Assembly: GCA_963745025.1 (NCBI GenBank)
Contig: CAVUWD010000010.1
Location: forward strand, 93,794 to 157,793
Source of the DNA: an uncultured delta proteobacterium
GTDB taxonomy: Bacteria > Desulfobacterota > Binatia > JACPRU01
Direction of reading: 5' to 3'
DNA: 64,000 bases
The first letter of the stretch is position 1, and the number at the start of each line of letters is the position of its first letter. The notes below the pieces were generated by a model. That model was not told the origin of the DNA. It was given only the letters and a program-made list of their open reading frames with translations, and searched no databases. Shown one piece after another: positions 33,345 through 60,135 of this stretch. Made by a program: the position numbers and the translations under genes.

Positions 33345-33429
33345 CACCCGCAAAGACACGAGCCCTGGTTCGCATTCCGGGGCGCACGACGTTTCCATCG
33401 CCGCGGACATCGGCTATGGGCTGGCGACC

Positions 33430-34158: not shown

Positions 34159-34163
34159 CCGCG

Positions 34164-34817
34164 ATGCTCGCCATCCTCGCCAAAGACCTGCGGATCGAGC
34201 TCCGCACCCGCGAAGGGGTGAGCTCGCTCGCCGTGCTCGGCCTCCTCGTGCTGCTGGTCTTTCAGTTCGCCTTTCCGGAGCGCCCCACGCCCGAGGCGGC
34301 CGCGGCGGCGCTCTGGCTCGCCTTCGTCCTGGCCGGGACCATCGGCGCACAGCGCACGTTCCTGCTCGAGCGCGAGAACGCCTGCATGCACGGGCTGGTG
34401 ACCGCTCCGCTCGATCCCGCCATGATCTTTGTCGCCAAGATGCTCGGCAACGTGGTGATCCTCACCGTGCTCCAGTTCCTCGTGGTGCCGTTGAGCGTGG
34501 TCTTCTTCAATGTCACGCCGACGGGTCATCTAGGCTGGTTGGCCGTGGTCTGTTTCCTCGGCAACGTCGGCTTCTCCGCGGTGACGACGCTGTTTGCCGC
34601 GATCTCGGTGCGGATCCGGGCCCGCGAGGTGATGTTGCCGCTGCTCGTCCTGCCGCTCGTCTCGCCGCTCTTGATCGCGGCCGTCAAGGCTTCGGCGCGC
34701 TTGCTCGGCGACGGCTCGGTGGCCGAGGTCTCGGTCTGGATCCAGGTGCTGGCCGCGTTCGACGTGATCTTCGCCGCCAGCGGCTGGCTCTTGTTCGAGT
34801 ACGTGGTTCGGGAATAG
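34164..34817 (+). CDS. ccmB: haem exporter membrane protein CcmB
   Basis: The 217-aa product has 6 TM helices and begins MLAILAKDLRIELRTREG... It sits between ccmA and ccmC. Confidence 0.8.
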   Translation: MLAILAKDLRIELRTREGVSSLAVLGLLVLLVFQFAFPERPTPEAAAAALWLAFVLAGTIGAQRTFLLERENACMHGLVTAPLDPAMIFVAKMLGNVVILTVLQFLVVPLSVVFFNVTPTGHLGWLAVVCFLGNVGFSAVTTLFAAISVRIRAREVMLPLLVLPLVSPLLIAAVKASARLLGDGSVAEVSVWIQVLAAFDVIFAASGWLLFEYVVRE

Positions 34818-34830
34818 AAGCGGAGGGGCG

Positions 34831-35526
34831 ATGAAACGACTTGGCTCGTGGACGGAGCGGTTGCTCCCCTTGCTCGTCGGCCCGGGAATGCTCGGTTCCC
34901 TCTACCTGATCTTCATGGTGGTGCCGACCGAGCGGGTGCAGGGGATCGTCCAGCGGATCTTCTACTTCCATGTTCCGGCGGCCTGGGCCGCCTTTCTCGG
35001 ATTCTTCGTCGTCGCGATCGCCGGCAGCCTCTTCCTGTGGAGCGGTCGCGCCGCCTACGACCGTGTCGCCCGTGCCGCAGCCGAGATCGGCATGATCTTC
35101 TGCACTCTGGTGCTCCTCACCGGCCCGATCTGGGCGCGACCGATCTGGGGGGCGTGGTGGACCTGGGATCCACGCCTCACCATGACGATGATCCTGTGGA
35201 CGATCTACGCCTCCTACCTTCTCCTGCGCGCCTTCGGCGGCGCCGAGGAGGCGGTGGCGCGCTACGCCGCCGTGCTCGGCATCGTCGGGGCGCTCGACAT
35301 CCCGCTGATCATGATCTCGGTGCGGCTGTGGCGCGGCATCCACCCGTCCGTGATCACTGCCCGTCCCGGCGAGGGGGGGCTCGCCGACCCGAGCATGCGC
35401 TTCACGCTCCTCTTCACGGGCCTCTGCTTCGTGCTTCTATTCGTTTGGATGCTGCTCGTCCGGCTGCGGGCGCTGCACGTCGAGGACGAAATCGAGGCCG
35501 TTCACCGCCGGATCCATCCCGCCTGA
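34831..35526 (+). CDS. ccmC: haem lyase/exporter subunit CcmC
   Basis: The Trp-rich motif WGAWWTWDPRL is present, with conserved His residues in the flanking loops. Confidence 0.9.
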   Translation: MKRLGSWTERLLPLLVGPGMLGSLYLIFMVVPTERVQGIVQRIFYFHVPAAWAAFLGFFVVAIAGSLFLWSGRAAYDRVARAAAEIGMIFCTLVLLTGPIWARPIWGAWWTWDPRLTMTMILWTIYASYLLLRAFGGAEEAVARYAAVLGIVGALDIPLIMISVRLWRGIHPSVITARPGEGGLADPSMRFTLLFTGLCFVLLFVWMLLVRLRALHVEDEIEAVHRRIHPA

Positions 35527-35536
35527 GGCGACCTGC

Positions 35537-35686
35537 ATGGAAAACTTCCCGTATCTCTTCTCGGCTTACGCGATCGTGTGGATCGTGCTCTTCGTCTACC
35601 TCTTCTCCCTGGATCGCCGCGGTCGCCGGGCCGAGCACGATCTCGAAGAGCTCCGTAAGCTCTTGCGCGCGAAGGAAGCGAAGTGA
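35537..35686 (+). CDS. ccmD: CcmD-like small membrane protein (49 aa)
   Basis: My own translation is MENFPYLFSAYAIVWIVLFVYLFSLDRRGRRAEHDLEELRKLLRAKEAK*. It has a single TM helix plus a basic tail and starts 10 nt after ccmC. It is below the ORF-track size cut-off. Confidence 0.6.
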   Translation: MENFPYLFSAYAIVWIVLFVYLFSLDRRGRRAEHDLEELRKLLRAKEAK

Positions 35687-35773
35687 AGCCGGTGCCGGTC
35701 GCCCCCACCCGCCGGCCCTCGCCGATTCGCGCCTCGATGCCGGGCTGATCGCCGAGCGGTTCGCTCGAGCCGC

Positions 35774-37165
35774 TCAGCCCGCCGGATCGAGCCCCCCTGC
35801 TCTGCGAGGCTCCTGGGCTTCGCCCCGAGCGTGCTGCTTCGCAAGCGCGCGCCCGGCTTCGATCAGCGCGGGCACGCCGATCCCTCGCAGGTAGTTCCCG
35901 AGCAGATGCAAGCCGGGGATGCGCGCGAGCGCGAGATCGACCGCGTCGAGGCGCGCGGGATGGGCCAGGTCGTAGCGCGGCAGAACCGAGCGATAGCGAA
36001 GCACGCGCGACCAGGGCGGGTCGCCGGACAGGCCGAGCAGCGGGAAGACTTCGCGCTCCACGATGGCGAGAATCTCCGGGTCGGACATCTCGGCCACTTC
36101 CGGATGCCGTGCGCCGCCGAGCAGGGTCCTCAGGAGCACCGTGCCGCGAGGCGCGCAGTCGGGATCGATGGAGGAGGAGAACAGCGTGCCGAGATGGAGG
36201 CGCTTCTCGCGCGAGGGGACGAGATAGCCGAAGCCGTCGAGCGGGTGCGCGACGCGCTCGCGCGGCCAAGCGTGGATCACGCAGGCGAGGCTCTCGAAGG
36301 AGATCGTCGCCAGCTCGCGCGATGCCTCCGGGCTCGCTTCACCGAGCAGCTCGGCCGCCGCTCGCGCGGACGTGGCGACGACCACGCGTGCGCAGTCGAA
36401 GAGCTCGCCGCCGGCGATCACGCGGAAGCGGGCGCCCTGTCTCCGCAGCGACTCCACCGGCGTCGAGAGCCTCAAGCGCGGCAGGAGGCTCTCGGCGAGC
36501 GCGCGCGTCAGCGATCCCATGCCTCCGCGCGGCTTGCACAAGGTCGGCGCGGCAGACGCGGCGCGGTCGCGCTTTCTCTTGAACAACGCCTTGGTGACGC
36601 TCCCGTGATCCTCGACCATCCGCGCGAGGTCAGGGAACGTCGCCCGCAGCGAGAGCTGCTCCGGGTCGCCCGCCCAGACGCCGCTGACGAACGGGTCGAG
36701 CAGCGATTCCACGACCTCTTGTCCGAAGCGGTGGCGCACGAACTCCGCCAGCGAGCCGCCGAGCGCGACCCGCGGGTCGCGGCGGAACTCCCCGAGAATC
36801 CGCAGTTTGCCACCCCAGGAGAGCAGCGGGCTCGACAAGAAGGAGAGCGGCGAGAGCGCGACCAGGTGTCCTCGATGGCAAAGAAAGCGCTTGTGCGCAC
36901 CGCGCGGAGCCGGCACGAGCTCGAGGGCGAGCTCCGAGAAGAGCGCCACGACCTCGGGCGATCCCGACCGCAGCGCTTCGGGCCCGCGCTCGTAGCGCAG
37001 CTCGCCCCCCGCGCCGTCCCAGACGCCCCGCTCGGTGCGAACCCAGCCGCCGGTCGAGTCGGAGGCTTCGACCACCGCGAGGTCGGCATCGGGGCCTCGC
37101 GCGTGCGCGTAGGCGAGGCCCGAGATCCCCGCGCCGATCACCAGCGTGTCGAGCGAGCGGCTCAT
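35774..37165 (-). CDS. hemY: protoporphyrinogen/coproporphyrinogen oxidase, FAD-dependent (HemY type)
   Basis: MSRSLDTLVIGAGISGLAYA is followed by ...VEASDSTGGWV..., ...FDCARVVVATSA... and ...LHLLGNYLRGIGVPALIEAG. The start at 37163-37165 is in frame with the 657-aa track ORF, whose upstream part is Arg-rich. Confidence 0.85.
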   Translation of the reverse strand: MSRSLDTLVIGAGISGLAYAHARGPDADLAVVEASDSTGGWVRTERGVWDGAGGELRYERGPEALRSGSPEVVALFSELALELVPAPRGAHKRFLCHRGHLVALSPLSFLSSPLLSWGGKLRILGEFRRDPRVALGGSLAEFVRHRFGQEVVESLLDPFVSGVWAGDPEQLSLRATFPDLARMVEDHGSVTKALFKRKRDRAASAAPTLCKPRGGMGSLTRALAESLLPRLRLSTPVESLRRQGARFRVIAGGELFDCARVVVATSARAAAELLGEASPEASRELATISFESLACVIHAWPRERVAHPLDGFGYLVPSREKRLHLGTLFSSSIDPDCAPRGTVLLRTLLGGARHPEVAEMSDPEILAIVEREVFPLLGLSGDPPWSRVLRYRSVLPRYDLAHPARLDAVDLALARIPGLHLLGNYLRGIGVPALIEAGRALAKQHARGEAQEPRRAGGLDPAG

Positions 37166-37304
37166 ACGGGGGCCTCGCGCGCGCACACCGCGCGATGCTC
37201 GGCGAGGTGCCGGCCGGCTTGCCGCATGAGCCGGACGGGAGTTCGCGGAACCAGCTCGCGGCGCAGCGCCCGCAGGAGCAATCGACCGGGAGCGGTCGGG
37301 TGGA

Positions 37305-38603
37305 TCACGCGGGGCGCGCCTCCCCGAGCGCTTGCAGCGACGCCTGGAGCGCGGCGGCCGCCTGCTCGAGGTGGCTCGTCTCGTGCGCCGTCGAAACGAA
37401 GGCGACCTCGTAGTAGGAGGGCGCGAGCCAGATCCCGCGTTGCAGAAGCAGCGGATGGATCTCCGCGTAGCGCTCCGCGCCGCGCGGGTCGATGCGGTGG
37501 TAGGCGCGGGGCGCGGGAGCCGGCTCGAGCCAGAGCCCGAGCACGGAGCCGACGCGCGAGACGCATCCCGGCACCCCGGCGCGCTCGAACGCGAGCCGGA
37601 TGCCCTGCTCGAAGCGCTCGCCCAGATCCTCGAGCCGCGCGTACGCGCCGGGCCGGTCGAGCTCGCGCAGCGTAGCCAGACCCGCCGCCATCGCCAACGG
37701 ATTGCCGGAGAGCGTGCCGGCCTGGTAGACGGGCCCGAGCGGAGCAACGTGCCGCATGAGGTCTTCGCGCGCTAGATAGGCGCCGACGGGCATGCCGCCG
37801 CCGAGGATCTTGCCGAGCGTCACGACGTCCGGCCGGATGCCGGAGATCTCGCTCATCCCGCCCGGCGCGACGCGGAAGCCGCTGATCACCTCGTCGAAGA
37901 TCAGCAGAGCGCCGTGTTGGTGCGTCAGCTCGCGCAACGTCTGCAGGAACTCGCGACGCTGCACCAGGAGACCGGCGTTCGCGGGCAGCGGCTCGATCAC
38001 CACGGCGGCGATCTCGGCTCCCTTGCGCGCGAAGAGCTCGCGAGCGGCCGCTTCGTCGTCGAGCGGCAGCACCTCCGTCAGCGCCGTGACCTCGGGCGGC
38101 ACTCCTGCGGACGAGGGCGTGCCGAAGGTCGCGAGCCCGGAGCCCCCCTTCACGAGCAGCCCGTCGGAGTGTCCGTGGTAGCAACCCTCGAACTTGACGA
38201 GGCGCGAGCGTCCCGTTGCGCCGCGCGCGAGACGCACCGCGCTCATCACGGCCTCGGTGCCGGTCGAGACGAAACGCAACTGGTCGCAGAAGGGGAAGCG
38301 CGCGAGCGCGGCCTCCGCGAGCTCGATTTCCGCGGCACAGGTGGCTCCGAAGGAGAGGCCGTCGCGCGCGGCGCGCGTCACCGCCTCGACCACGGCGGGA
38401 TGCGCATGGCCGAGGATCAACGGGCCCCACGAGCCCACGAAGTCGACGTAGGTGCGACCCTCGGTGTCGGTGACGAGCGCACCGGAGCCCCGAGCGACGA
38501 ACCGCGGGTCGCCGCGGACGGCGCGAAACGCCCGCACCGGGCTCGACACGCCGCCCGGCATTACCTTGCGCGCTCGCGCGAACAGATCCCCGGTGTTCTT
38601 CAT
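37305..38603 (-). CDS. hemL: glutamate-1-semialdehyde 2,1-aminomutase
   Basis: The N-terminus is MKNTGDLFARARKVMPGGVSSPVRAF. The PLP-lysine context is TLGKILGGGMPVGAY. GGAGGAGG lies 5 nt before the ATG at 38603. Confidence 0.93.
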   Translation of the reverse strand: MKNTGDLFARARKVMPGGVSSPVRAFRAVRGDPRFVARGSGALVTDTEGRTYVDFVGSWGPLILGHAHPAVVEAVTRAARDGLSFGATCAAEIELAEAALARFPFCDQLRFVSTGTEAVMSAVRLARGATGRSRLVKFEGCYHGHSDGLLVKGGSGLATFGTPSSAGVPPEVTALTEVLPLDDEAAARELFARKGAEIAAVVIEPLPANAGLLVQRREFLQTLRELTHQHGALLIFDEVISGFRVAPGGMSEISGIRPDVVTLGKILGGGMPVGAYLAREDLMRHVAPLGPVYQAGTLSGNPLAMAAGLATLRELDRPGAYARLEDLGERFEQGIRLAFERAGVPGCVSRVGSVLGLWLEPAPAPRAYHRIDPRGAERYAEIHPLLLQRGIWLAPSYYEVAFVSTAHETSHLEQAAAALQASLQALGEARPA

Positions 38604-38816
38604 CCAGACCTCCTCCAGCGCTTCGCGTGCGCGGCGGGTGTCCACGAGGTCGGCCCCGGCCTGTTAAACGAACCGCTCGTCGAGCCAGCCCTCCGACGCG
38701 CCCGCCCGCATCATGCCGGTACCTCGCCGGAGACTTGGAAGCAAACCCGTTGCCGGAGCCGTCCCTCGCACGACGGACTTGACGCTGCGCGGCCGCCCCG
38801 GCAAAGCCTCAATGCG

Positions 38817-39950
38817 ATGAGCCAGAACCCCGATTCTCGCCGCTTCTGTCCGTCCTGCCGCGCCCCCGCGGTCTCCCGAGCGAGCTTCTGCGCCGCTTGT
38901 GGCGCGGGACTTCCCGGCGGGTCGACGCCGTGGCTGCGCCCGACCCTGCCCGCCTACGCCGTGCTCGCGGCCTTTTTCGCCGTCGGCCTCGGACTCTGGA
39001 TCTCGCTGCTGGCTCCGGGCGGCTCGCCGCAGAGTCCGCCGCTCGCCGAGCAGGACCCCGGCGATAAGCCCTCGGCCGGCCGCGAGCTTCCGTCCGATCA
39101 TCCTCCTATCCCGCTGCCGGGCGACGTCGCGAAGCTCCTCGGCGATCTCGAGCGCCAGGCGGAGGCGGCGCCAAAGGACGTTGCCACCTGGAAGCGACTC
39201 GCCGAGCACGAGTACCGCGCGGGGCGGGTCGACAAGCAGTACCTGGCGAAGGCCGAGAAGGCGTTCCGCCACATCCTCGAGCTCTCCCCGGATGACCGCG
39301 ATGCCATTCGCGGGCTCGGCAACCTCGACTTCGACCGCGACGATTATGCATCGGCCATCACTCACTACTCCCGCTATCTCGAGCTCGACCCGAAGGACTC
39401 CGGCGCGCGCACCGATCTCGGCACCATGTACCTTTATGCCGGCGATGTCGCGAAGGCGATCGCCGAGTATCAAAGGGTGATTGCCGCCGAGCCCGCCTAC
39501 TTCGAGGCGCACTTCAATCTCGGCCTCGCCTATCGCCGCAGCGGCGACGAAGACAAAGCGAAGGAGAGCTTGGAGCGCGCCCGTTCGTTCGCTCCGGATG
39601 AGCGCTCGAAGCAGCAGGTCGCGGCGGCGCTCGCCGGGCCCGGCGGCGCGCCTCCTGCGGGTGGAGCGAAGCTCTCCTTCCAGCAGATGATCGAGCGGGG
39701 CCTGCGGGGGCATCCGATCGTTGGGCCCAAGATCGTCGGCTTCGAATGGCCGGGGCCGACTTCCGGGCAGGTGAAGCTCGACGGCTTCCCGCTGGAGGAG
39801 ATGCCGGCGCCGGTCCGCGAGCGGTTCCTCGGTCGGCTGGAGAAGGATCTCGCCGATGCGCGCGCCAAGAGCGGCGAATCGGGCGAGGCGCAGCTCGCGC
39901 TCGTCGACCGGGCGAGCGGCCGCGTCATGGCCACCGTCGTCGTTCGTTGA
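38817..39950 (+). CDS. membrane-anchored zinc-ribbon / TPR-repeat protein
   Basis: The N-terminal CPSC...CAAC forms a zinc ribbon, followed by one TM helix (AYAVLAAFFAVGLGLWISLL) and about four TPR repeats (DAIRGLGNLDFDRDDYASAITHYSRYLELDPKD...). The stop overlaps the TTG start of the next gene (TTGA). Confidence 0.75.
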   Translation: MSQNPDSRRFCPSCRAPAVSRASFCAACGAGLPGGSTPWLRPTLPAYAVLAAFFAVGLGLWISLLAPGGSPQSPPLAEQDPGDKPSAGRELPSDHPPIPLPGDVAKLLGDLERQAEAAPKDVATWKRLAEHEYRAGRVDKQYLAKAEKAFRHILELSPDDRDAIRGLGNLDFDRDDYASAITHYSRYLELDPKDSGARTDLGTMYLYAGDVAKAIAEYQRVIAAEPAYFEAHFNLGLAYRRSGDEDKAKESLERARSFAPDERSKQQVAAALAGPGGAPPAGGAKLSFQQMIERGLRGHPIVGPKIVGFEWPGPTSGQVKLDGFPLEEMPAPVRERFLGRLEKDLADARAKSGESGEAQLALVDRASGRVMATVVVR

Positions 39951-42199
39951 ACGTTTTCACGATCCGGAATTCCGACCGCGCGGTGCTGCTGTCGGGCGGC
40001 GTCGCGACGGCGCTCGTGCTCGGCGGCATCGTCGGGATCGGCCTGTTCATCCGCTGTTCGTTCTTCCGCAACTTCGTCAATCCCGAGGGTGGGTTCTTCT
40101 TTTACAGCGTCGACGCCCACGATCACCTGCGGCGCGTCATGCTGGGGATTCAGGCGTTCCCGGCCGTGCCCGTGCGTGATTCGTACATGGGCTATCCCGT
40201 TGGCACGGGCCAGATCTGGTCGCCGCTCTTCGATTACATACTCGCCGCCATCGCGGTTGTCGCGTGCCGCTCGCGGGCGGCGGTCGAAACATTGTGCTTC
40301 TTCGCCAATCCCGCCTACGCCGGCCTGACGCTGTTGCTGCTCTTCGTCGTCGCGCGCAGGTTGTTGAGCCACACGCCCGCCGCGCTGGCCGCCGCCTTTC
40401 TTCTCGCGCTCTCGCCTGGGCACATCTCTTACACTCACCCGATGAACTTCGACCACCATGTTTTCGAGCCCATAGCCATTCTCGTCCTCACGGCCCTCGT
40501 CTTCCTGGAGCGGGACGATCGGTTGAGCATCGCCGGCACGTGCGGGGTTGCCGTCGCGCTGGTGATCACCATTTTCATGTGGCGAGGCAGCACCATCTAC
40601 TGGGGGCTCACCTTCCTGCGCGTGCTGATCTGGTCGCTGGCGGCGCGTCGACCGCGGCTCGCCCGCGAGTATGCCCGTGGCTTTGCGGCGGCGGCCGTGG
40701 CGCTCGCTGTCTTCGTCTGGATGGATCCGTGGGGCAACGCGCGCAACGTCTCTTTCGGGATCGTTTCCGGTTTTCACGTCATCCTGCTCGGCTTGGCGGC
40801 GCTATGCCTCGGCGTCGTAGGCCGTGCGGCCGACCGCCGGCAGAGCGCCATCGCGCTGGCCGCGGTTGCCCTGGGGGTCCTGCTTTCACTGACACTGTCG
40901 CCGGTCCGCGAGGTCCTCCACAGCCTCTCGGCCGGTCTGGCCTTCTTCGGCCGCAGCGGAGACCCATGGTTGGCTTCCAACAGTGAATTGAAAGGCACCT
41001 TTTATCACGGAGGCTTTTTCGCCGGCGCCACGTACCTGACCTTGTACTGGTTCCTCGCCCCGGGCGCGGTTGCGCACGCCTTCGGGCGCTGGCTGCGCGC
41101 GGAGGGAAGCGACAGGCAGCTCTTTGCCTTCTGCTTCATCGGTCCCTTGTTCGCCATGGGGTTGGTGCTGCGCTACGTGCACATCGCCGGTCTGGCGACG
41201 GCCTTTGCCGGCGGGTACCTGTTCGCACTGGCTTGGGAGAAATGGCGCCAGCCCATGGCCAGAGCCGGAGCCGTCGCATCGCTGCTCCTGCTGCTGCTGC
41301 CCTCTCTGCCTCATTACCAGGACACCCTGCAAAGCCGACTACCCGATCCCATGCGAATGGGGCTCTTTGGTTCCAAAGGCGTGCTGACCTGGCTGCGGGA
41401 CAACACGCCCAAGACCGCGCACTATCTGGATCCGATCGCGGTGCCGGAATACGGCGTCATGGCGGAGTGGGACCTGGGGGCCATGATCTATCAGGTGGCC
41501 GAGCGACCGGCCGTCTCTACGGCTTTCGGATGGGAGACGCACGGATTCTACGAAGAGAACACCTTCATGGCGACGACCGAGGCGGAGGTCGCCGAGCAAA
41601 TTCTGAACGACAATCGGGTGCGGTACGTGCTGCTGCGGGCGTATCAGGCGCGGGCGATGCACTTCGCCATCGCCGAATACGGCGTCAAGGAAGGGAAGAT
41701 CCCACGCGCGCTGGTCGGCACGTATCAGCCCGACAAATCAATATACACTCGGCTCATGTACAATGACGGCGCGGCCTATCGCTCGGGCGCAGAGATCGTG
41801 CCCGGTCTCGAGCAGTACCGCCTGCTCTACGAATCCGACTACCTCGCCAGCGACGACCCGGGCCACGGGCTCAGCTACTACAAGGTGTTCGAGTTCGTTC
41901 GAGGCGCGCGCGTCCTAGGAACGGCCACGCCAGGAAGCGACGTCGCCCTCGAACTGCCTCTCCTGACCTCCCGGCGTCGACTCCTTCGATACACCAACTG
42001 GACGAAGGCGACGCAAGACGGCCGCTTCATGCTCACCCTGCCGTACGCGACCAACGTGGCGCAGGGCGACACCGCGGCACAGGGTGCGTACGCGATCGTC
42101 GACGACAACGGGCGCAGAGCCAGCCTGGAAGTGACGGAAGCGGATGTCGTCTCCGGCAACTCGCTCAGCGTGATACTGGCCGAGCCCGAGGGGAGATGA
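39947..42199 (+). CDS. STT3/AglB/PglB-like oligosaccharyltransferase homologue (GT-C fold)
   Basis: About 13 TM helices followed by a soluble C-domain. The first-loop acidic motif is SVDAHDHLRRV (compare DxDxxxHxR). An EL5-like SNSE matches SVSE/TIxE. VMAEWDLGAMI stands in place of WWDYG. The TTG start at 39947 was chosen because the ATG at 39746 would overlap 200 nt of the TPR gene. Confidence 0.7.
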   Translation: MNVFTIRNSDRAVLLSGGVATALVLGGIVGIGLFIRCSFFRNFVNPEGGFFFYSVDAHDHLRRVMLGIQAFPAVPVRDSYMGYPVGTGQIWSPLFDYILAAIAVVACRSRAAVETLCFFANPAYAGLTLLLLFVVARRLLSHTPAALAAAFLLALSPGHISYTHPMNFDHHVFEPIAILVLTALVFLERDDRLSIAGTCGVAVALVITIFMWRGSTIYWGLTFLRVLIWSLAARRPRLAREYARGFAAAAVALAVFVWMDPWGNARNVSFGIVSGFHVILLGLAALCLGVVGRAADRRQSAIALAAVALGVLLSLTLSPVREVLHSLSAGLAFFGRSGDPWLASNSELKGTFYHGGFFAGATYLTLYWFLAPGAVAHAFGRWLRAEGSDRQLFAFCFIGPLFAMGLVLRYVHIAGLATAFAGGYLFALAWEKWRQPMARAGAVASLLLLLLPSLPHYQDTLQSRLPDPMRMGLFGSKGVLTWLRDNTPKTAHYLDPIAVPEYGVMAEWDLGAMIYQVAERPAVSTAFGWETHGFYEENTFMATTEAEVAEQILNDNRVRYVLLRAYQARAMHFAIAEYGVKEGKIPRALVGTYQPDKSIYTRLMYNDGAAYRSGAEIVPGLEQYRLLYESDYLASDDPGHGLSYYKVFEFVRGARVLGTATPGSDVALELPLLTSRRRLLRYTNWTKATQDGRFMLTLPYATNVAQGDTAAQGAYAIVDDNGRRASLEVTEADVVSGNSLSVILAEPEGR

Positions 42200-42312
42200 C
42201 GGGAGGGTGATTCGACGTCCGATTGGGCTCCTGCGATGAGGCGTGATGCGCTGCCCGCGTTGACGCAGGATTTGCGGTTGCAGGCACTCGTGAAAGCAGG
42301 ATACTCGAAGTC

Positions 42313-43710
42313 GTGGCAGCCCCGCACCGCTTCACCAAGCCGCTGGCCGCCGGATTCTTTTGTTGCGCCGTGATTCTACGGGCGTTGCTGTGTTGGGCGA
42401 ACCCTCCGGCGAACTCCTTTGACGATCATTTCGCGCCGATCTTCATGACAATGAAGTCCGGCGTCATTCCCCCGAAAGACGCCTGCTATCAGTGTTACCA
42501 TCCGCCCGTCTTCTACGGCATCTCCGCGCTGATTGGTAACGTGGCTGTTCGTGCGGGCGCCACGCTACCGCAGTTGATGAAACTCCTGCAATCCGTCTCC
42601 TGTGTTTATGGGATATTGACCGTCGGTGTTTGCTACCTGATTGTCAGGAAATTTCCGCTCTCCGACTTCTCGATGTTGATATCGTTTGGGACCGTCTGCT
42701 TCCTGCCTCGTCATATCTACATGTCGGCAATGCACTCGAATGACACCATATCATATTTGTTCGTGGCGCTTGCGATATACATTGCCGTCGTTGTGATTGA
42801 GCGGGGATTTCCCCCGCTGGATGCCGGCGTCTTGAGCGTGATCCTCACGATCGCGGAATTTACCAAGTACACCGCTTTGGTGGTTCTCCCGGTGGCAGTG
42901 ACGGCCTTGTTTTCGGCTGTTCGCCACCGGCTGATCGTTTCGCGAAAAAGGGCTGTCTGCTTGGCCCTCGGCATGCTGGCGCTGCCCCTGACGACTTTAG
43001 CGGGTTACATGCTGTCGAATGTGCGGCACTACGACAGCCCGCTGCCCTCGAACGTCGCGATCTATGATTCGACCGCCCACAGGCCCCGTGATGCGGGGGG
43101 AATCAGTTTCTTTACGTTCAAGCCATGGGAAGACATGCGGACCCCGATGCTGGCGCCGGGGAAGCTGCATTCCTTCTGGACGCTGATTTACAGCGGGATG
43201 TGGTTCGACACCGAGCCGTATTTTCTGCGCTTCCTCGATGCAGACACCGGCTGGTGGAAGCATTATTACCGTTGGTACCGGGGAGAGGAGGGCTATCCAG
43301 GTGAAAATCCTTCCTTGTCTCATTTCACGAGCCTGGCGGGTTTCGGGCTGATCGGGATGGGGCTGGTTCCCTTGGTGTTGATTCTGCTCGGCTTCGTTTG
43401 TTGTGTCACCGGGAGATGGAGCGGGGTGAAGCAAGCCACCGTTTCGCAACGGATCAGCATGAGCATGTTCCCCGTGCTGGCGGTATTCAATGCGGCGGGA
43501 GTCATTGCGCTGACCATGAAATTGCCGGTCTACAACTCGATGAAAGCGTCCTACTTTCTGAACTCGACGCCCGCGTTCATGGTGTTCCTCGGCCTGGGGG
43601 TGATGCGTTGTGAGCGGAATGCAACCGTGAAGCGGATCGTTGCGGTGACCTTTGGTGGGTTGTTCACGCTCGCGACCCTGCATATTCTCCACATCGTCCT
43701 TGCCATCTAG
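42313..43710 (+). CDS. second GT-C-fold membrane glycosyltransferase (ArnT/PMT-like), lower G+C
   Basis: The 465-aa polytopic protein starts at a GTG. The N-terminal loop FDDHFAPIF lies near TM1. Line 42601-42660 has 27/60 G+C. Confidence 0.55.
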   Translation: MAAPHRFTKPLAAGFFCCAVILRALLCWANPPANSFDDHFAPIFMTMKSGVIPPKDACYQCYHPPVFYGISALIGNVAVRAGATLPQLMKLLQSVSCVYGILTVGVCYLIVRKFPLSDFSMLISFGTVCFLPRHIYMSAMHSNDTISYLFVALAIYIAVVVIERGFPPLDAGVLSVILTIAEFTKYTALVVLPVAVTALFSAVRHRLIVSRKRAVCLALGMLALPLTTLAGYMLSNVRHYDSPLPSNVAIYDSTAHRPRDAGGISFFTFKPWEDMRTPMLAPGKLHSFWTLIYSGMWFDTEPYFLRFLDADTGWWKHYYRWYRGEEGYPGENPSLSHFTSLAGFGLIGMGLVPLVLILLGFVCCVTGRWSGVKQATVSQRISMSMFPVLAVFNAAGVIALTMKLPVYNSMKASYFLNSTPAFMVFLGLGVMRCERNATVKRIVAVTFGGLFTLATLHILHIVLAI

Positions 43711-43821
43711 CAGCAGGTGAAGGGAAATTGCGGATGTGGTGGGCGGACTTCGGCTACGGCTACGAGTACGCGATCATCGTCGGGGACGCCGCCGTCACTT
43801 GGAGTGCGGTGAGGTAGCGGC

Positions 43822-44166
43822 TCACTTGACCGGCTGCGGATGGCACCGGCCGCACGTGTTGATGCTCGACGCAAAGGCGCCCCGCCCGTTGTGGCATACG
43901 CCGCACGCCTTGCCCGCCTTGATCTCGTCCATCTTGATCGGCGGCACATCCTCGGCCTTCATCGGGAAGATCGCCGGGTGACAGACGTTGCAGGTGAAGC
44001 GCATGCGGTGCTGCCAGTGCGAGAACACGCTGATGGGGGCCATCTCGGAAGCTGCCGGTTCTTCCGCCCGCTTGAACGTGATGTCGCCCGGCGCCGCGGC
44101 CAGCGCGATCCAGGCGCTCGCCAGAACGGCGATCGCGACGGCGAGGTGAAGCCGGATCGGTCTCAT
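43822..44166 (-). CDS. secreted tri-haem cytochrome c7/c3-like protein
   Basis: Signal peptide plus the haem motifs CNVCH, CGVCH and CGRCH in 114 aa. The ATG overlaps the upstream stop (ATGA). Confidence 0.85.
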   Translation of the reverse strand: MRPIRLHLAVAIAVLASAWIALAAAPGDITFKRAEEPAASEMAPISVFSHWQHRMRFTCNVCHPAIFPMKAEDVPPIKMDEIKAGKACGVCHNGRGAFASSINTCGRCHPQPVK

Positions 44167-44828
44167 CCTTTTTTCGCCGGCTCCTTCGTGTGACAGGCCG
44201 CGCAGACCTTCAAGTCGAGTGCGATCTTTCCCTTGCCGTGGCAGACGCCGCAGTATTTGCCGTCGCCCAACTCGTCCATCGTCATCGTCGTCGCGCCCGC
44301 CGTCTTCGGGAAGATTGCGTCGTGGCAATTGTCGCACGCGAGCCAACGGTCGTGCGTCGCGTGATGGAAGATCACGCCCTCCTCGCCCTTCAGCGGGACC
44401 TCGGTGTCGCGGCTCTCACGGGACGGGGCGCCCGTCTCGAGTGAACGGAGGGGTGCGATCACGTGCTTGTCGACCGCGGCGATCCAGTCGACCGCGGTCT
44501 TCGGAGCCTTCGGCACCGTGAGCTTCGGGAGCGCGGCGAGCGCCTCCTCCCAGGTGTCGAGTTGCTCGATCTCTGGCCGCCCTTCCCGCGGAAACTCGCG
44601 GAGCGTCGGTCCGGCGATCTTCGGCCGCGCCGCGATTTCCGTGCCTGGCGGGGGCTTCTTCGCGGTCTCGGGATGGAGCCATAGCTCGTACGGCGGTACG
44701 CCGTCGAGGAGCGTGCTGAGCACCCGGTGACGGGTCTGCGAGGCGCAGGCGACGAGGAGAGACGCGGCGGCCGCGACGGCGACGGCTGCGGCTTTCCTTC
44801 GGCATGTTCTGGCGAGCAATCGCTTCAC
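44163..44828 (-). CDS. lipoprotein with C-terminal tri-haem cytochrome c7/c3-like domain
   Basis: The GTG start at 44826-44828 overlaps the upstream stop (GTGA). The lipobox is SLLVACAS. A Pro/Lys-rich linker leads to CDNCH, CGVCH and CAACH. Confidence 0.8.
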   Translation of the reverse strand: MKRLLARTCRRKAAAVAVAAAASLLVACASQTRHRVLSTLLDGVPPYELWLHPETAKKPPPGTEIAARPKIAGPTLREFPREGRPEIEQLDTWEEALAALPKLTVPKAPKTAVDWIAAVDKHVIAPLRSLETGAPSRESRDTEVPLKGEEGVIFHHATHDRWLACDNCHDAIFPKTAGATTMTMDELGDGKYCGVCHGKGKIALDLKVCAACHTKEPAKKG

Positions 44829-46681
44829 GGGTACGAGAGGTTTTCGTGATCCACGCCGTGGCACAGGAGGTTGCAGCTTCCCGAGAACGTCCCGGTGTCG
44901 TCGAACGTGGGGGGGCTCCCGGCGGACCTCCCGAGCACGATCCTCGAGTCGAAGTTGATGAGGTGCGTGTGCGATCCGGTCCGCCCCGGGCCGAGATCGC
45001 TGACACCGTGCGGATCGTGACACGCGGAGCAGGGAGCGCCGGCGGCGAGGTGCCCGCTGTGGCCTCCGCCGGAAGCGGTCGTCCGCGCCGTCTTCCTCTG
45101 GAAGCTCCTGTCGCCGAGGATGCTCGACCGGTTGTGGCAGCGATAGCAGAGAGCGTAGCTGTTGAAGCTCTCCGGAGTGTGGTCGGTAGTCACGTAGCGT
45201 TCCCTTAGGATGGGCGGGAACGCGGAGCCGTGAGGGCCCCGCGAGCCCTGCTCGTCGTCGGCGTGGCAGCTCGTGCAATAGATCATCGTGGAACTGCTCA
45301 TGCCGGGCTCGAACTGCGACGGAAGGCTCGGCACGTTCGGCTCCCGGCCGATGTCGACGACCGGATGATACGAGGGGTTGGTGGGGTCGAAGGCGAGGCG
45401 CGTGTTCGTCGTGGGGCGGGCGCGCGGAATGCGATCCATGTCCGGCGCGTTCTCGGCGTGGCACTTGAAACAGACTTCGTACTCGTACGCCGCCTGCTCT
45501 AGCGCCGTACCGTTGCGGTCGACTCCGCTCACCCCGAACAGCATCCCGGAGATATCCGGCGCCTTGGCCTCACGATTGGTGAGGAGATGGGGATCGTGGC
45601 AGTCCGTGCAGGTCACGTCGCGGATGACGCCGCTTTGCGCGCCGACCAAACGTGACGACGTGATCGCGCTGAAGCGATGGCTCTGGCGGTGTGCGGAAGG
45701 CTTTTCCACCTGGCGGCCGATGTCGACCATTCGCGGCCCGAGACGAGCAACCGGACGAGCCGCGGCCGCTCCCGCGACGGCGTGTGCCGGCGGCGGCCCG
45801 GAGCCGTGACATCCTCCGCTGATGCACGAGAACGGCTCGGGCGGCTCGTCGGTGAAGTTGAGCAACTGTTGCGCCGTGGGCGCGAAGTGGGGCGTGTGGC
45901 AGGTTTCGCATCCCCATTCGTTCAGCTGGGTGTAGGTCGGCCACGTCTTCGGGGGTATCGGCAGGACGCCGACGACGGACGCCGTCGAGGTCGCATGCAC
46001 CGACGAGCTCCATTGGTCGATCTGGTGGCAGGCGATGCAGAGCGCGGAGTAGCGGTTGTCCATTCGCAGAAACTTCCCGTACACGTCCTTGTGAGAATCG
46101 TGGCAGGTGATGCAGTGAACCTCGTCCTGCCCTCCGTAAACGAGCTCCACGGGAGGCGACGGAGCCAGCTCATTGCTGGGCAGCGCATTCTGGTACGGAA
46201 ACGACACCGGGTGATGTCCGGAGAGGTCGAGACCGAAGTTCGACAGGCTTGCCGTAGGCAGGAAGCCGCTGCCCGCCATGCCGATTCCTCCTGCCGGGTT
46301 CAGTACCGCGCCCATGGCGATGGTCCCGTCGTGACAGCTGAGGCAAAGCTTGGTCGGGCCCGAGGGCTGGGGAAGCGGACCCGCTCTGAGCGTGGGGCTC
46401 GCGTAGACCTGGTAGACCCTGGGCTCGAGCGCCCGGTTCCAGAGAGGCGAGCGGGGGGCGGCGTTGTGCGGCGTATGGCAGAAGACGCAGATCCGGGTCT
46501 CGGTGAGCGCACGGATCGGTCCCGGGCCGGACACCGAGAGGTTGTGCTTCGTCATCTGGATGTCGGCGGGCAGGGGCACGGGCACCTGTGCCCCTGCGGT
46601 GGACACGAGGCCGGCGAGGAGCAGCAGCAAGAGTCCGGGGGGCAGCGCTCCGCGCTCAGGACGTGCCACGGCGGTCTTCAT
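44825..46681 (-). CDS. multihaem c-type cytochrome, paired-CXXCH (Geobacter-type) family
   Basis: Signal peptide, then 10 canonical CXXCH motifs (CVFCH, CLSCH, CITCH, CIACH, CETCH, CTDCH, CFKCH, CTSCH, CYRCH, CSACH). CISGGCH (CX4CH) and CNLLCH (CX3CH) are also present. RICVFCHTPHN is the hallmark of the doubled-CXXCH domain. Confidence 0.9.
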   Translation of the reverse strand: MKTAVARPERGALPPGLLLLLLAGLVSTAGAQVPVPLPADIQMTKHNLSVSGPGPIRALTETRICVFCHTPHNAAPRSPLWNRALEPRVYQVYASPTLRAGPLPQPSGPTKLCLSCHDGTIAMGAVLNPAGGIGMAGSGFLPTASLSNFGLDLSGHHPVSFPYQNALPSNELAPSPPVELVYGGQDEVHCITCHDSHKDVYGKFLRMDNRYSALCIACHQIDQWSSSVHATSTASVVGVLPIPPKTWPTYTQLNEWGCETCHTPHFAPTAQQLLNFTDEPPEPFSCISGGCHGSGPPPAHAVAGAAAARPVARLGPRMVDIGRQVEKPSAHRQSHRFSAITSSRLVGAQSGVIRDVTCTDCHDPHLLTNREAKAPDISGMLFGVSGVDRNGTALEQAAYEYEVCFKCHAENAPDMDRIPRARPTTNTRLAFDPTNPSYHPVVDIGREPNVPSLPSQFEPGMSSSTMIYCTSCHADDEQGSRGPHGSAFPPILRERYVTTDHTPESFNSYALCYRCHNRSSILGDRSFQRKTARTTASGGGHSGHLAAGAPCSACHDPHGVSDLGPGRTGSHTHLINFDSRIVLGRSAGSPPTFDDTGTFSGSCNLLCHGVDHENLSYP

Positions 46682-47738
46682 ATCCCTCCGTGACGCGGAA
46701 CACCTGGATCCGCGCGTTGTACGTGTCGCAGACGTAGAGAGTGTCCTCCTTGATGAAGGCGCCCGACGGAAGCCAGAACTCGGCGAAGCCGATGCCTCTC
46801 TGGCCGAGCGTCAACAGGAACTCTCCCTTCCGGTCGAACAGCTGAACGTTGTCGAAGAGTCCGTCCACGACGTAGATGACGCCGTCTCGGTCCACGGCGA
46901 TGCCCTTCGGCATCGCCAGGTCGCCCGAGCCGTCGCCGTGACGACCGAAGGAGGCGAGCGGCTTTCCGTCCTCGTCGAAGATGCGGACGCGGAAATTGAG
47001 CGCATCGGTCACATAGAGCTCTCCCGCCGGCGATCGGAAGATGTGCGTCGGAAAATTGAGGCCGCTCTCGCCCTCTCCCCGCTCGCCGAACGAGAACGCC
47101 GGCTCGCCGGTCGTCCGGAATGCGTGGACCCGGTTCGCCAGTGTGTCGACGACGTAGACGAGCTTCCGCTGCGGGCTGTACGCGATGCCCGTCGGCCGCT
47201 GGAGCGGCTCCCCCCCGGCCTCGCGAAGGACGAAGCGCACGCCGCCGTCCGCTCCGAACGCGAACACCTTTCCGGCCGAGTCCGAGAGAAAGAGCGTCGA
47301 CTGCTCGTCGAAGACCAGTCCCACGGGCGACGTGAGAGCGTCCCGTTCGGAGCCGTACAGACGAACGTAGCGCCGCTCGGCCGGCACGTAGAGATGCACG
47401 CATCGCCGGCCCATGTCGGCGACTGCGATCCGCCCGTCGTCACCAGTCGCGACGGCGACCGGCAGCACGAAAGCATTCCGCGCCGGATCCTCCCTGCCGA
47501 AGACGATCGCGCTCGCGACCGACCTCGCGTCGGTGTCGGTGGCGAAACCGGTGAGCGACCGGACGTACGTGACCTTTGGAGGGCTCGGCGGAAACGGCCA
47601 TTGCAGCGCGCTCGGAGGCTCGGCCGTCCTCATCGCCCACTTCGACGCACAACCGGTGCCGGCTGCCATGAACGCAAGCAGCCACACGGCCGCTCGCCCC
47701 GCTCCGTTTCCGTGATCGCCGTGATTCATGCCGCTCAC
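46656..47738 (-). CDS. NHL-repeat beta-propeller protein, probable lipoprotein
   Basis: The signal/lipobox is LLAFMAAGTGCAS. Repeated units include GIAYSPQRKLVYVVDTLANRVHAF and GIAVDRDGVIYVVDGLFDNVQLFD. The GTG start overlaps the barrel gene stop (GTGA); an alternative ATG is at 47729. Confidence 0.8.
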   Translation of the reverse strand: MSGMNHGDHGNGAGRAAVWLLAFMAAGTGCASKWAMRTAEPPSALQWPFPPSPPKVTYVRSLTGFATDTDARSVASAIVFGREDPARNAFVLPVAVATGDDGRIAVADMGRRCVHLYVPAERRYVRLYGSERDALTSPVGLVFDEQSTLFLSDSAGKVFAFGADGGVRFVLREAGGEPLQRPTGIAYSPQRKLVYVVDTLANRVHAFRTTGEPAFSFGERGEGESGLNFPTHIFRSPAGELYVTDALNFRVRIFDEDGKPLASFGRHGDGSGDLAMPKGIAVDRDGVIYVVDGLFDNVQLFDRKGEFLLTLGQRGIGFAEFWLPSGAFIKEDTLYVCDTYNARIQVFRVTEGYEDRRGTS

Positions 47739-49771
47739 AGGATCCGCCGCCGCAGATGGAGATAGATGTACTGGTTCTCGCGATTGGTCCCGACCGTATT
47801 CGTGCCGCTCGTTTGCGATCCGTACGCGGTCCCGCCCAAAACCAGCTGCAGCTGTCCGGTGGTCCAGCTCAAGAACCCATCTACGCTGTACGCGTCGCCG
47901 TCGACCAGTCCGTTCACCCGGGAATACGATCCGCCGACGTTCAGCGACAGCCCCTCCAGGAAAAGCTGCTGCTGGAGGTATCCCGACGCAGTCACCGTTT
48001 CGTCCGTGAAGGCCCTTCGGTCGGTTTCCGACAGTCCCTGGCTATAATACCTGTTCACATAGGTCAGCGCAGCGTGGACGTCGGTCGTCCGGCCGATCGG
48101 GCTCACGTACTGCAGGTCCGCTCTCCATTGCCGGTAGGGGCTCACGTCCCATTCGAGGTCCTGGAATTCTCCGTCGGCGCGGAGCGGGCCGCGCTGGAGA
48201 CGGAGTCCCACCGTGTAGACCGTCGTGTCGGTGAGGTTCCCCGGAAAAGAGCCGGACGTCACGGTGGGACGGACCAGCGCGTAGCTGTAGTAAGGGGTCA
48301 CCTGGTTTTCGAAGAGCTCGACGCTGCCGTTCTGCGTGAGGGTGTTGGTGCGAATGTCGAAATTTCCGCCGAGGTTCGAATACGAGACGAGAAAATCGTA
48401 GGTCCGCGGGAGGGCGAACCTCGGCGGCAGCGTGAGCAACCGGATTTCGAAACTGTTCTGCACCGGCACGAGCGTGTAGTGGACGTTCTCGACGAGGGGA
48501 ACGAGCTCGAACGGCGGCAACGGCGACTTCAGGAAGACGTCGATGCTTGCGCGATCGACGTTCGGCTGCAGCAGCCGAAAGGATCCTGGCACGAGGACCG
48601 CCGAGTGCGGCTCGTTGATGACGCTCGCCGTGCCGCTGTTGTCGCTGGTTCCCGTTCCGAGGTTCACCCCGGCGAGCAGCCTGCCCCACGGAATCGACTT
48701 CGTATAGTTGACGTCCACCCAGTGGAAGAGCGAGGTCGTCGAGCCGCCCACCGAGTCCCACGAATTGAACTCGAAGTGGTATCCCGAGTCGACGCTCTCG
48801 TAGAGCCGGTGAACGAGGTTTGCCAGGATGTCATTGCCGTGGTTCGTCAGCCGTTGGGACTGTGGAGTCGCCAGGTCGGTGATCGTGGCGTCGTCGTCGC
48901 GGTAGCGGTAGGAAGCGTCGCCGCGGAAGTTCCACGGTAAATACGTGTTCAACAGCTCGTACACGGAAAACTGGTCGCTATTGAAATCCTGCGACGGGCG
49001 GCTCTGCTGCTGATCGAAGGACCTCTTGACCACGCTGGACGTAAGCTGCACGCTCCGCAGGTTCACGAAGTTGCCGAGCACGTATTCGTACGATGTGCCG
49101 TTGAGTCCCAGAGAGTCGCTGAACCAAGTCGGATTGAAGCCGCCGTTGAAGGACAGCTCGTTCCCCGCCGCGGTGCGCAGGAAATACTTGCCATTCACTG
49201 CGAGTTGGTTCACCTCCGAAGACGTAACGCCGTAATCGTTCGACTGGTTCACGAAGTTGGTGCCAAAAAAATACGGCTTCTTGCGGTAATGGAGCTCTAC
49301 GCCGCGCCGGTTCTCGATTTGATCGAATTGAGGCGCGGCCTGTTCGGTGAACATCGGCTCGTACCGGTCCGCGAAGACCACCATGTTGTAGAAGTGCTCG
49401 GGTAGCAGAGTGAGCCGCGTTTCGTATTCGGGGCCGGTCCTATGGCGCCAGCCGGTATCAGGCAGGAAGGACGATTGGTAATTCTCCTGTGAGAGGACCC
49501 CGCCGACGGTGAACCGATACTGCAGGAACTTGGGGTCGTACGAGTAGCCGATCGATCCGACCGAAAGCTTTTCCTTGATGAACGTGTCGGTCCATTCGAC
49601 GGTGCGTCCCGCACGGTTCCTATCGCGCTCCCACGACGTAAACACGTCGATCCAGGCGCCGTTGTCCACGGGTGTCGGCACGAACTCCCTCCAGTCGCAG
49701 AGCGCGGACGACGAGGTCAGCGCCTCGAGCAGGCACAGGCCGATCAGCCGCAGCGCGAGGTATCTACCCAA
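47735..49771 (-). CDS. large predicted outer-membrane beta-barrel protein (678 aa)
   Basis: Signal peptide MGRYLALRLIGLCLLEALTSSSA. The sequence is rich in Tyr, Gly, Asn and Ser, with alternating-hydrophobic strand patterns throughout (e.g. YTVGLRLQRGPLRADGEFQDLEWDVSPY), and ends ...YIYLHLRRRIL. It has no haem motifs. The start is a TTG. Confidence 0.65.
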   Translation of the reverse strand: MGRYLALRLIGLCLLEALTSSSALCDWREFVPTPVDNGAWIDVFTSWERDRNRAGRTVEWTDTFIKEKLSVGSIGYSYDPKFLQYRFTVGGVLSQENYQSSFLPDTGWRHRTGPEYETRLTLLPEHFYNMVVFADRYEPMFTEQAAPQFDQIENRRGVELHYRKKPYFFGTNFVNQSNDYGVTSSEVNQLAVNGKYFLRTAAGNELSFNGGFNPTWFSDSLGLNGTSYEYVLGNFVNLRSVQLTSSVVKRSFDQQQSRPSQDFNSDQFSVYELLNTYLPWNFRGDASYRYRDDDATITDLATPQSQRLTNHGNDILANLVHRLYESVDSGYHFEFNSWDSVGGSTTSLFHWVDVNYTKSIPWGRLLAGVNLGTGTSDNSGTASVINEPHSAVLVPGSFRLLQPNVDRASIDVFLKSPLPPFELVPLVENVHYTLVPVQNSFEIRLLTLPPRFALPRTYDFLVSYSNLGGNFDIRTNTLTQNGSVELFENQVTPYYSYALVRPTVTSGSFPGNLTDTTVYTVGLRLQRGPLRADGEFQDLEWDVSPYRQWRADLQYVSPIGRTTDVHAALTYVNRYYSQGLSETDRRAFTDETVTASGYLQQQLFLEGLSLNVGGSYSRVNGLVDGDAYSVDGFLSWTTGQLQLVLGGTAYGSQTSGTNTVGTNRENQYIYLHLRRRIL

Positions 49772-54966: not shown

Positions 54967-54987
54967 CGCGGCGATAGGGACAAAATC

Positions 54988-60071: not shown

Positions 60072-60135
60072 GCTTTGCTCTGACAAGCAGATGAACGAAA
60101 TGCGAATAACGAAGGCCTACGGAGGGAGAATCGAG

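Follow-up and report, generated by a model that had tools for sequence, protein, structure and literature searches.

To our knowledge, work on bacterial STT3-type oligosaccharyltransferases has been confined almost entirely to the PglB of Campylobacterota and of a few Desulfovibrio. Here we describe a 750-amino-acid (aa) STT3/AglB-like protein and the genes around it in a 64-kb stretch of DNA (the window; contig CAVUWD010000010.1) from an uncultured wetland-soil bacterium. One described relative, PglB (Campylobacter lari, C. jejuni; homologues in Desulfovibrio), is likewise a single-subunit STT3-superfamily enzyme of the Gram-negative periplasm (PMC4894442), and a 2015 survey of PglB homologues included one Geobacter candidate. 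Another is AglB-L of Archaeoglobus fulgidus (AfAglB-L; PDB 3WAJ, 3WAK, 5GMY, 7E9S), which has the fold of a type C glycosyltransferase (GT-C) with a C-terminal core and a peripheral domain. For the neighbouring genes, the closest described systems are OmcE (PDB 7TFS) and the omcE glycosylation clusters of Geobacter and Geomonas. The minimal omcE cluster comprises two multihaem cytochromes, two beta-propeller lipoproteins, OmcE and a large beta-barrel protein; a commoner pattern, found in many Desulfuromonadia and chiefly in genera of freshwater and the subsurface (Geobacter and Geomonas among them), adds genes for glycosyltransferases of families 2, 4 and 39 (GT2, GT4 and GT39) and for tetratricopeptide-repeat (TPR) proteins (bioRxiv 10.1101/2025.10.22.684050). 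In OmcE filaments of G. sulfurreducens, extra cryo-electron microscopy (cryo-EM) densities have been read as glycosylation (PMC9473688; bioRxiv 10.1101/2025.10.22.684050).

We found no description of a bacterial AglB-like family, or of a link between STT3 and cytochrome nanowires, in the searchable literature. The superfamily and the fold are known; the bacterial clade, its acceptor pocket and its genomic partnership have not been characterised previously. After weighing the data below, we propose, with a probability of roughly 0.55, that the 750-aa protein is an archaeal-type, catalytically competent GT-C enzyme that glycosylates components of the OmcE-type extracellular cytochrome system and recognises its acceptors in a non-canonical way. 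The proteins form an archaeal-like bacterial family of their own, in which the catalytic centre is intact and the acceptor pocket remodelled; its carriers are anaerobes that cycle iron and sulfur in soils, wetlands and sediments. Its recurrence in or beside OmcE-type clusters makes the family a testable candidate for the glycosylation of surface and nanowire cytochromes, a question raised by cryo-EM, and it may provide a glyco-engineering enzyme with a new acceptor specificity.

An archaeal-type STT3 protein with conserved catalytic residues

The 750-aa gene encodes an archaeal-type member of the STT3 oligosaccharyltransferase superfamily. Three Pfam domains scored above their gathering cut-offs, namely AglB_L1 (PF18079; 9.8e-18, 64.5 bits against 23.6), AglB_core-like (PF22627; 2.9e-10, 40.9 bits against 27) and STT3 (PF02516; 2.2e-9, 37.8 bits against 24.5). 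The sole NCBIfam match was TIGR04154 (archaeo_STT3, the archaeosortase A-associated oligosaccharyltransferase; 2.6e-69), which at 234.5 bits against a cut-off of 450 is the closest curated family but not one to which the protein belongs. A profile of the family aligned with AfAglB-L over almost the full length (3.8e-69). The hydropathy plot contains at least 10 strong transmembrane segments, and the AlphaFold2 model (pLDDT 88.4, pTM 0.86; built from an alignment of 29 homologues) consists of a membrane domain made of helices and, after it, a C-terminal domain of mixed alpha/beta structure. In a Foldseek search with this model, the top PDB matches were the AfAglB-L entries 7e9s, 3waj, 5gmy and 3wak (E 1.4e-28 to 1e-26, TMq 0.73-0.80). 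Eukaryotic STT3 (~1e-16), the C-mannosyltransferase DPY19 (2e-10) and PglB (5e-10, TMq 0.49, 12% identity) came next.

The STT3/AglB-type identity put forward in a preliminary description of the window is confirmed by the three domains and the fold match, and a search for an assignment to ArnT, PMT or another GT-C family gave none. ArnT, AftA/AftD and PMT structures stood far behind in the fold list, the Pfam matches are of STT3/AglB type, and membership of the DPY19 family was rejected on both the Pfam matches and the fold search. The same description had placed PglB beside AglB as a structural reference; here the enzyme proved to be like archaeal AglB and not like PglB (TM 0.80 against 0.49). 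Unlike PglB, it also has no canonical WWDYG and MI motif, and no pgl-type locus is present in the window. The differences from AfAglB-L are a bacterial host, the sequence EWDLG, a DK lysine that is not conserved, and a setting in which multihaem cytochrome genes, rather than an archaeosortase or S-layer context, lie beside the gene.

The residues expected of the catalytic centre are conserved. In the family-profile alignment, D56 (SVDAHDHLRR) corresponds to AfAglB D47, D169-H170-H171 (NFDHH, residues 167-171) to D161-H162-H163, E347 (SNSE) to E360 of TIAE, and R409 to R426, and thus the conserved acidic residues looked for in an alignment to solved structures were found (D56, D169 and E347). 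We take the AfAglB and PglB counterparts of D56 and of D169/H171 to be metal ligands, that of E347 to be the catalytic-loop Glu, and that of R409 to be the Arg that contacts the lipid phosphate; the metal ligands, the loop Glu, the phosphate-binding Arg and the DHH second motif are all shared with AfAglB-L. The first acidic motif belongs to external loop 1 (AfAglB D47, PglB D56), the second reads D154-x-D156 in PglB, and the Glu of TIXE/SVSE (AfAglB E360) belongs to external loop 5. Earlier, counterparts of all three oligosaccharyltransferase signature elements had been reported for this protein. The three motifs SVDAHDHLRRV (54-64), SNSE (344-347) and EWDLG (507-511) are indeed present and align with AfAglB, but WWDYG is degenerate throughout the family and DK is kept only in part. 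NFDHH, which has the DHH form of AglB, is a further motif that had not been named.

Among 20 close homologues (40-95% identity), D56, H60, H170, E174, E347, R409, W508 and G511 are invariant, and D56 and E347 are invariant in 29 of 29 aligned sequences. This pattern would be expected of an active enzyme under selection, and the conserved residues suggest that the 750-aa protein is a catalytically competent GT-C enzyme. D169 is replaced by Gly (NFGHH) in six relatives (P0007, P0009, P0011, P0015, P0017 and P0018; proteins and loci related to the window are numbered with P and L, respectively). The Gly-bearing subclade has the STT3-like gene in its tightest operon with cytochrome and TPR proteins (L003:9896-12142, L018:8621-10846). 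We also observed a sizeable sister group among the top 150 representatives (P0054, P0055, P0058, P0061, P0063 and others), in which DHHVxE has become DNE(M/L)xE and D..HLRR has become GDxYxHLRK, and in which the WWDYG position is likewise degenerate.

The degenerate WWDYG and the Asp-to-Gly change, found in a subclade still in a cytochrome operon, would also suit a non-catalytic paralogue whose STT3 fold serves, as a scaffold or a chaperone, in exporting or assembling the cytochrome complex. We consider this very unlikely, because D56, H170, E347 and R409 are invariant at 40-95% identity, as expected of an active enzyme, and because a GT2 resembling polyprenol-phosphate sugar synthases adjoins the gene in seven loci, which would imply the supply of a donor.

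A degenerate acceptor motif

In canonical enzymes, WWD and DK/MI together build the pocket for the Ser/Thr at position +2 of the sequon. In the 750-aa protein, EWDLG aligns with the WWDYG of three A. fulgidus AglB paralogues; W508, D509 and G511 are kept, the canonical WWDYG is absent, and the pattern of the family is x-W-[D/N/S/Y/G]-x-G. Degenerate forms occur in most of the 150 best representatives from a 1.8-billion-protein library, and canonical WWDYG(N/H) is found in a minority of them, the two named ones being archaeal. In the DK region, SDIEMETGKYYAM of AfAglB aligns with LRAYQARAMHFAI, in which the Asp is lost, the Lys is replaced by Met, and the terminal Met/Ile is kept as Ile; P0002-P0004 have Lys at the position of the DK lysine. 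From these alignments, the acceptor rule of the family probably differs from that of canonical N-oligosaccharyltransferases.

As WWDYG is degenerate and DK only partly kept, counting N-X-S/T sites is a weak guide to substrates. The DRNGT sequon noted earlier in the 618-aa cytochrome of the neighbouring cluster is present, and the N-X-S/T sites noted in a Cys-rich domain were recovered as four sites within ~60 residues of the open reading frame (ORF) that starts at 56771. Across the long cytochrome orthologues, a KHN-L-S sequon column is kept in five of five and an LLN-[FY]-T column in four of five, which may be structural. With the Ser/Thr pocket degenerate, sequon counts are evidence neither way.

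One alternative is that the protein is a general, ordinary N-oligosaccharyltransferase with many N-X-S/T substrates, for which the cytochrome cluster is one client or merely a neighbour. The fully conserved catalytic core, the retention of W508, D509 and G511, the two conserved sequon columns, and the position of some relatives among housekeeping genes all agree with such an enzyme. However, the family has lost the first Trp of WWDYG and varies at the Asp, the DK lysine is not conserved, and the gene is not accompanied by a pgl- or agl-like cluster for glycan assembly. A general enzyme would also hardly explain the specific recurrence of an OmcE-like cytochrome and an NHL lipoprotein beside it, and we regard this alternative as unlikely.

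A second alternative takes the degenerate Ser/Thr-binding motifs further and supposes a GT-C transferase whose acceptor is not a protein (but, for instance, a lipid or a surface polysaccharide) or whose linkage differs (O- or C-linked sugars), which would build a coat around the cytochromes and leave Asn unmodified. The structural matches include DPY19 (E 2e-10), L016 contains a Wzx-like flippase and other glycosyltransferases, and PMT_2-like proteins with TPR occur in 10 loci. Against it, the protein still has AglB_L1 and the core domain, which make up the peptide-binding face of AglB, and both score well; moreover, the best structural match overall is AglB with a bound peptide. We judge a non-protein acceptor or other linkage to be improbable.

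A recurrent neighbourhood of OmcE-like cytochromes

The 618-aa cytochrome encoded near the STT3-like gene matches OmcE over residues ~23-219, with four CXXCH motifs aligned (PDB 9yuq, 2.2e-25; 7tfs, 4.6e-24), and its C-terminal part resembles MtrC/MtrF domains in Pfam. Compared with OmcE itself, the domain in the window is fused into a much longer cytochrome with a large extra C-terminal region, and the organism lies outside the Desulfuromonadia; the likeness is one of sequence homology that includes four haem motifs. The cluster shares multihaem cytochromes, beta-propeller lipoproteins, a large protein, glycosyltransferases and TPR proteins with the omcE glycosylation clusters of Geobacter and Geomonas. 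It differs in that the paper on those clusters names GT2, GT4 and GT39 and no STT3 or GT66, with STT3, AglB, PglB and oligosaccharyltransferase unmentioned (bioRxiv 10.1101/2025.10.22.684050). From the description of the omcE clusters, the 678-aa secreted protein of the window may be their large beta-barrel protein (bioRxiv 10.1101/2025.10.22.684050); it has no Pfam or NCBIfam match.

Related loci were searched with a 20-sequence alignment (A2), the 29-sequence alignment (A1) being too diverse. Of 22 non-redundant loci that span 10 kb or more, 11 contain an OmcE-like ORF, as do two 4.4-kb loci (L026 and L031), where it lies directly upstream of the STT3-like gene. Orthologues of the 618-aa cytochrome adjoin the STT3-like gene in L003, L018, L019, L020 and L022; orthologues of the 360-aa NHL lipoprotein are co-located in the same five loci, with more distant relatives in L008, L009, L012, L026 and L035; and orthologues of the 678-aa protein occur in L019, L020 and L022, and L003 and L018 each carry a fragment of it at the end of the locus.

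Several of these loci hold the genes in one tight array on a single strand. In L019, whose enzyme is 65% identical, a single strand carries genes for an NHL protein, a small cytochrome, a 681-aa protein, a second NHL protein, a 612-aa cytochrome, a 440-aa cytochrome and, after a gap of 9 bp, the STT3-like protein. L020 (59%) and L022 (94%) have the convergent arrangement of the window. L003 and L018 (47-49%), from Thermodesulfovibrionales and a relative, present an array of a 678-aa-like end fragment, (SurA), an NHL protein, a 606- or 637-aa cytochrome, two or three membrane proteins with TPR and the STT3-like protein, with overlaps or gaps of a few bases between genes. In the Geobacter-type loci L008, L009 and L012, the order is purH, purD, STT3-like, GT2, purE, resB, ccsB, two cytochromes, NHL and OmcE, and the insertion between purD and purE spans L008:9938-12972, L009:9962-12997 and L012:9983-12153; the adjacent GT2 is present in L008 and L009, whereas in L012 none was detected. 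A true OmcE orthologue (7TFS, 2.6e-47) lies 7.5 kb from the STT3-like gene in the Geobacter loci, and in all three the gene sits at the purHDE-resB-ccsB border of the omcE cluster, as this border is defined in bioRxiv 10.1101/2025.10.22.684050. The conserved unit is the STT3-like gene together with the cytochrome/NHL cluster.

The adjacency might still be meaningless, a product of chance or hitch-hiking in cytochrome-rich genomes, given that these lineages have very many multihaem cytochromes, that four informative loci have none nearby, and that gene order varies between lineages. Yet the OmcE-like domain and the NHL propeller recur in Thermodesulfovibrionales, in Geobacter-type bacteria and in the lineage of the window, the ~680-aa protein recurs in closer relatives, and same-strand gaps or overlaps are 4-9 bp. 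We therefore find this explanation highly improbable. The strength of the association is a judgement; in our view, chance would hardly account for tight same-strand recurrence in lineages so distant from each other. The earlier suggestion that the neighbouring cytochromes are substrates gains support from the neighbourhood conserved across lineages and from the OmcE-like domain of the 618-aa cytochrome.

Information on a possible donor comes from a ~250-aa GT2 whose gene directly adjoins the STT3-like gene in seven loci. Its best curated matches are the polyprenyl-phosphate sugar synthases PpgS, AglJ and Dol-P-hexose transferase, all far below their cut-offs, which hints that the donor may be a simple polyprenol-phosphate sugar, as in euryarchaeal pathways.

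Taken with these data, a putative mechanism can be proposed. By homology to AfAglB, the active site would face the periplasm and hold a divalent metal through D56, D169 and H171. E347, on a flexible external loop, would aid activation of the acceptor, and R409 would bind the donor, a sugar or glycan carried on polyprenol phosphate, by its phosphate. Transfer of the sugar would then be to an acceptor protein in the periplasm or at the surface. The pocket for the +2 Ser/Thr appears remodelled, with EWDLG in place of WWDYG and Met in place of the DK lysine. The most likely acceptors would be the multihaem cytochrome with the OmcE-like domain, the NHL lipoproteins and the ~680-aa protein, and the enzyme would belong to the apparatus by which sugars are attached to surface or nanowire cytochromes. 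A narrower version, which we offer as a tentative possibility, holds that an archaeal-derived oligosaccharyltransferase was recruited to extracellular electron transfer and is dedicated to OmcE-type nanowire subunits or their assembly partners, with a donor made by an AglJ/PpgS-like GT2 and an acceptor rule other than N-X-S/T.

The analysis shows the fold, the family, the conserved catalytic residues, the degenerate acceptor motif and the conserved gene neighbourhood; catalytic activity, the donor, a protein as acceptor and the cytochrome as that protein are inferred. Several points weigh against glycosylation of the cytochrome system by this enzyme. Gly at the position of D169, in the subclade that includes L003 and L018, is odd for a metal ligand. 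Of the elements that define recognition of Asn-X-Ser/Thr, WWD is degenerate and DK only partly kept, and protein N-glycosylation is thus not assured; sequons in the long cytochromes number 5-9 against 3-5.5 expected from composition, only a ~1.6-fold excess. A search for lipid-linked-oligosaccharide assembly genes found none among the scanned ORFs of the 64-kb window, and the window has no adjacent GT2. No cytochrome lies nearby in the four informative loci L021/L024, L006, L015 and L034. Finally, cytochrome genes abound in these organisms, and chance alone would place some of them near the STT3-like gene.

Gene layout, partner genes and occurrence

The genes of the locus and of the cytochrome cluster are listed in Table 1; the remaining genes of the window were annotated with Pfam.

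Table 1. Coordinates of the STT3-like locus and the adjacent cytochrome cluster in the window
Feature	Coordinates	Strand	Basis
Zinc-ribbon/TPR protein, 377 aa	38817..39950	+	Translation
STT3/AglB-like GT-C glycosyltransferase (GT66-type), 750 aa	39947..42199	+	Profiles, fold, residue alignment
GT39/PMT_2-type GT-C glycosyltransferase, 465 aa	42313..43710	+	Pfam PMT_2, named homologues
c7-type cytochrome, 114 aa, three CXXCH	43822..44166	-	Cytochrome_C7; homologues in L017, L019
c7-type cytochrome, 221 aa, three CXXCH, lipoprotein signal (LVAC)	44163..44828	-	Annotation and lipobox
Multihaem cytochrome, 618 aa, ten CXXCH	44825..46681	-	PDB and Pfam matches, motif count
NHL-repeat beta-propeller lipoprotein, 360 aa	46656..47738	-	Pfam NHL 2.2e-21; lipobox
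Secreted protein, 678 aa, no family match	47735..49771	-	Conserved cytochrome-cluster member
NHL-repeat beta-propeller lipoprotein, second copy, 378 aa	49778..50914	-	Pfam NHL 3.7e-14; lipobox LAGC

The TTG start of the 750-aa gene (39947-39949) overlaps the TGA stop of the 377-aa gene (39948-39950), as described before, and the same TTG was chosen in independent gene calls on two public contigs that encode an identical 750-aa protein. A GTG 12 codons further downstream is a possible alternative start, and no Shine-Dalgarno-like sequence is obvious upstream of the TTG. The overlap makes translational coupling of the two genes plausible; the coupling claimed earlier is not proven. Exact-sequence look-ups for two other proteins of the window returned no match, probably owing to differing start calls.

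The 377-aa protein has an N-terminal zinc-ribbon, one transmembrane helix (a hydrophobic segment at about residue 42), TPR repeats and a C-terminal domain of unknown function. Pfam TPR families matched with up to 1.3e-17, matches to DZR/zinc-ribbon families were weak, and a weak likeness to the TPR domain of CcmH/CycH was below threshold. Its gene lies downstream of ccmA, ccmB, a ccmC-like gene, hemN, hemY and hemL, and judging from the sequence a role in apocytochrome handling is conceivable. We rejected it as a conserved subunit, as its N- and C-terminal parts have homologues only in the window and in the 94%-identical L022.

The 465-aa protein scored just under the cut-off for Pfam PMT_2 (3.2e-5, 24.6 bits against 26.1). 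PF13231/PF02366 is found in homologues that share 50-65% identity with it across 97-100% of the length; their names are glycosyltransferase family 39 or ArnT-like, and the closest, at 64% identity, come from other phyla. The lower G+C content reported for this gene was borne out (0.569; the window has 0.658 and the STT3-like gene 0.648). In the 113-bp gap 5' of it, no terminator-like site was found, and the promoter/terminator scan was uninformative. The gene is missing in L022, where a gene for a 193-aa secreted protein fills the same slot (L022:5234-6752). The gap between the STT3-like gene and the c7-type cytochrome gene is a variable insertion point, and the GT39 gene is a strain-specific insertion. 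The three-gene module of the preliminary description is consequently not conserved, its TPR partner being confined to two loci and its GT39 gene missing from one of these.

Other GT-C proteins with TPR domains provide a further comparison. TMTC- and PMT-type enzymes of GT39 share their type with the 465-aa protein, and a coherent family in which a PMT_2-like polytopic domain is fused to TPR repeats adjoins the STT3-like gene in 10 related loci. These enzymes belong to another GT-C family than the 750-aa protein, and the GT39 protein of the window has no TPR domain. In a BLAST comparison this protein had no similarity to the PMT_2-TPR neighbours, and we treat the two as separate. Another lineage-specific coupled partner is a MORN-repeat protein (~360-420 aa), which in Desulfobulbia-type loci is encoded directly upstream of the STT3-like gene and overlaps it (L004:3126-4199, L005, L007, L010:8857-9966 and L011).

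In a 5.8-billion-protein collection, ~20 full-length homologues of 41-95% identity were found, all from metagenomes or metagenome-assembled genomes (MAGs). Among species-representative genomes, the family occurs in MAGs of Nitrospirota and Thermodesulfovibrionales, in MAGs of Geobacter and Geobacteraceae, in Desulfobulbaceae/Desulfobulbia and in unclassified 'Deltaproteobacteria'. The cultured Geotalea toluenoxydans JCM 15764 (L012) also carries it, which makes genetics feasible; in its draft genome, frameshifts riddle the STT3-like gene and its neighbours alike and are probably sequencing errors. A CcmB at least 90% identical to that of the window is labelled 'Deltaproteobacteria bacterium'. 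Near-identical DNA was found in soil, bog, peat, wetland and sediment metagenomes, and none of the RNA runs contained the window sequence. The public contig ERZ25039487 contig_101677 (L001) covers the same region as 37305-49771 with indel differences, which disrupt hemL and the genes for the 618-aa cytochrome and the 678-aa protein, the last being called there as 338 + 337 aa; of the two versions, that of the window looks cleaner.

The whole region around the STT3-like gene is devoted to respiratory cytochromes. It is flanked at 31923-38645 by hemN, ccmA, ccmB, the ccmC-like gene, hemY and hemL, and downstream, at 53292-56244, by a complex of a c7-type cytochrome, a 4Fe-4S protein and an NrfD membrane protein. 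At 56771-60071 (+), three frames share the coding sequence of a large secreted protein that has PKD domains, multihaem motifs and an N-domain rich in Cys and in sequons; the split means either frameshift errors or a pseudogene. The protein is collinear with a >1600-aa cytochrome and PKD ORF of L016, at a distance of 5 kb from the STT3-like gene there. A second OmcE-like domain is found in a 282-aa protein at 60091-60939 (+; phmmer 6.6e-15 against the N-domain of the 618-aa cytochrome; paired CXXCH in Pfam). The window further contains, at 1078-2447 and 6715-7764, genes for the alpha and beta subunits of nitrile hydratase and a type III polyketide synthase-like gene, which are unrelated to this region.

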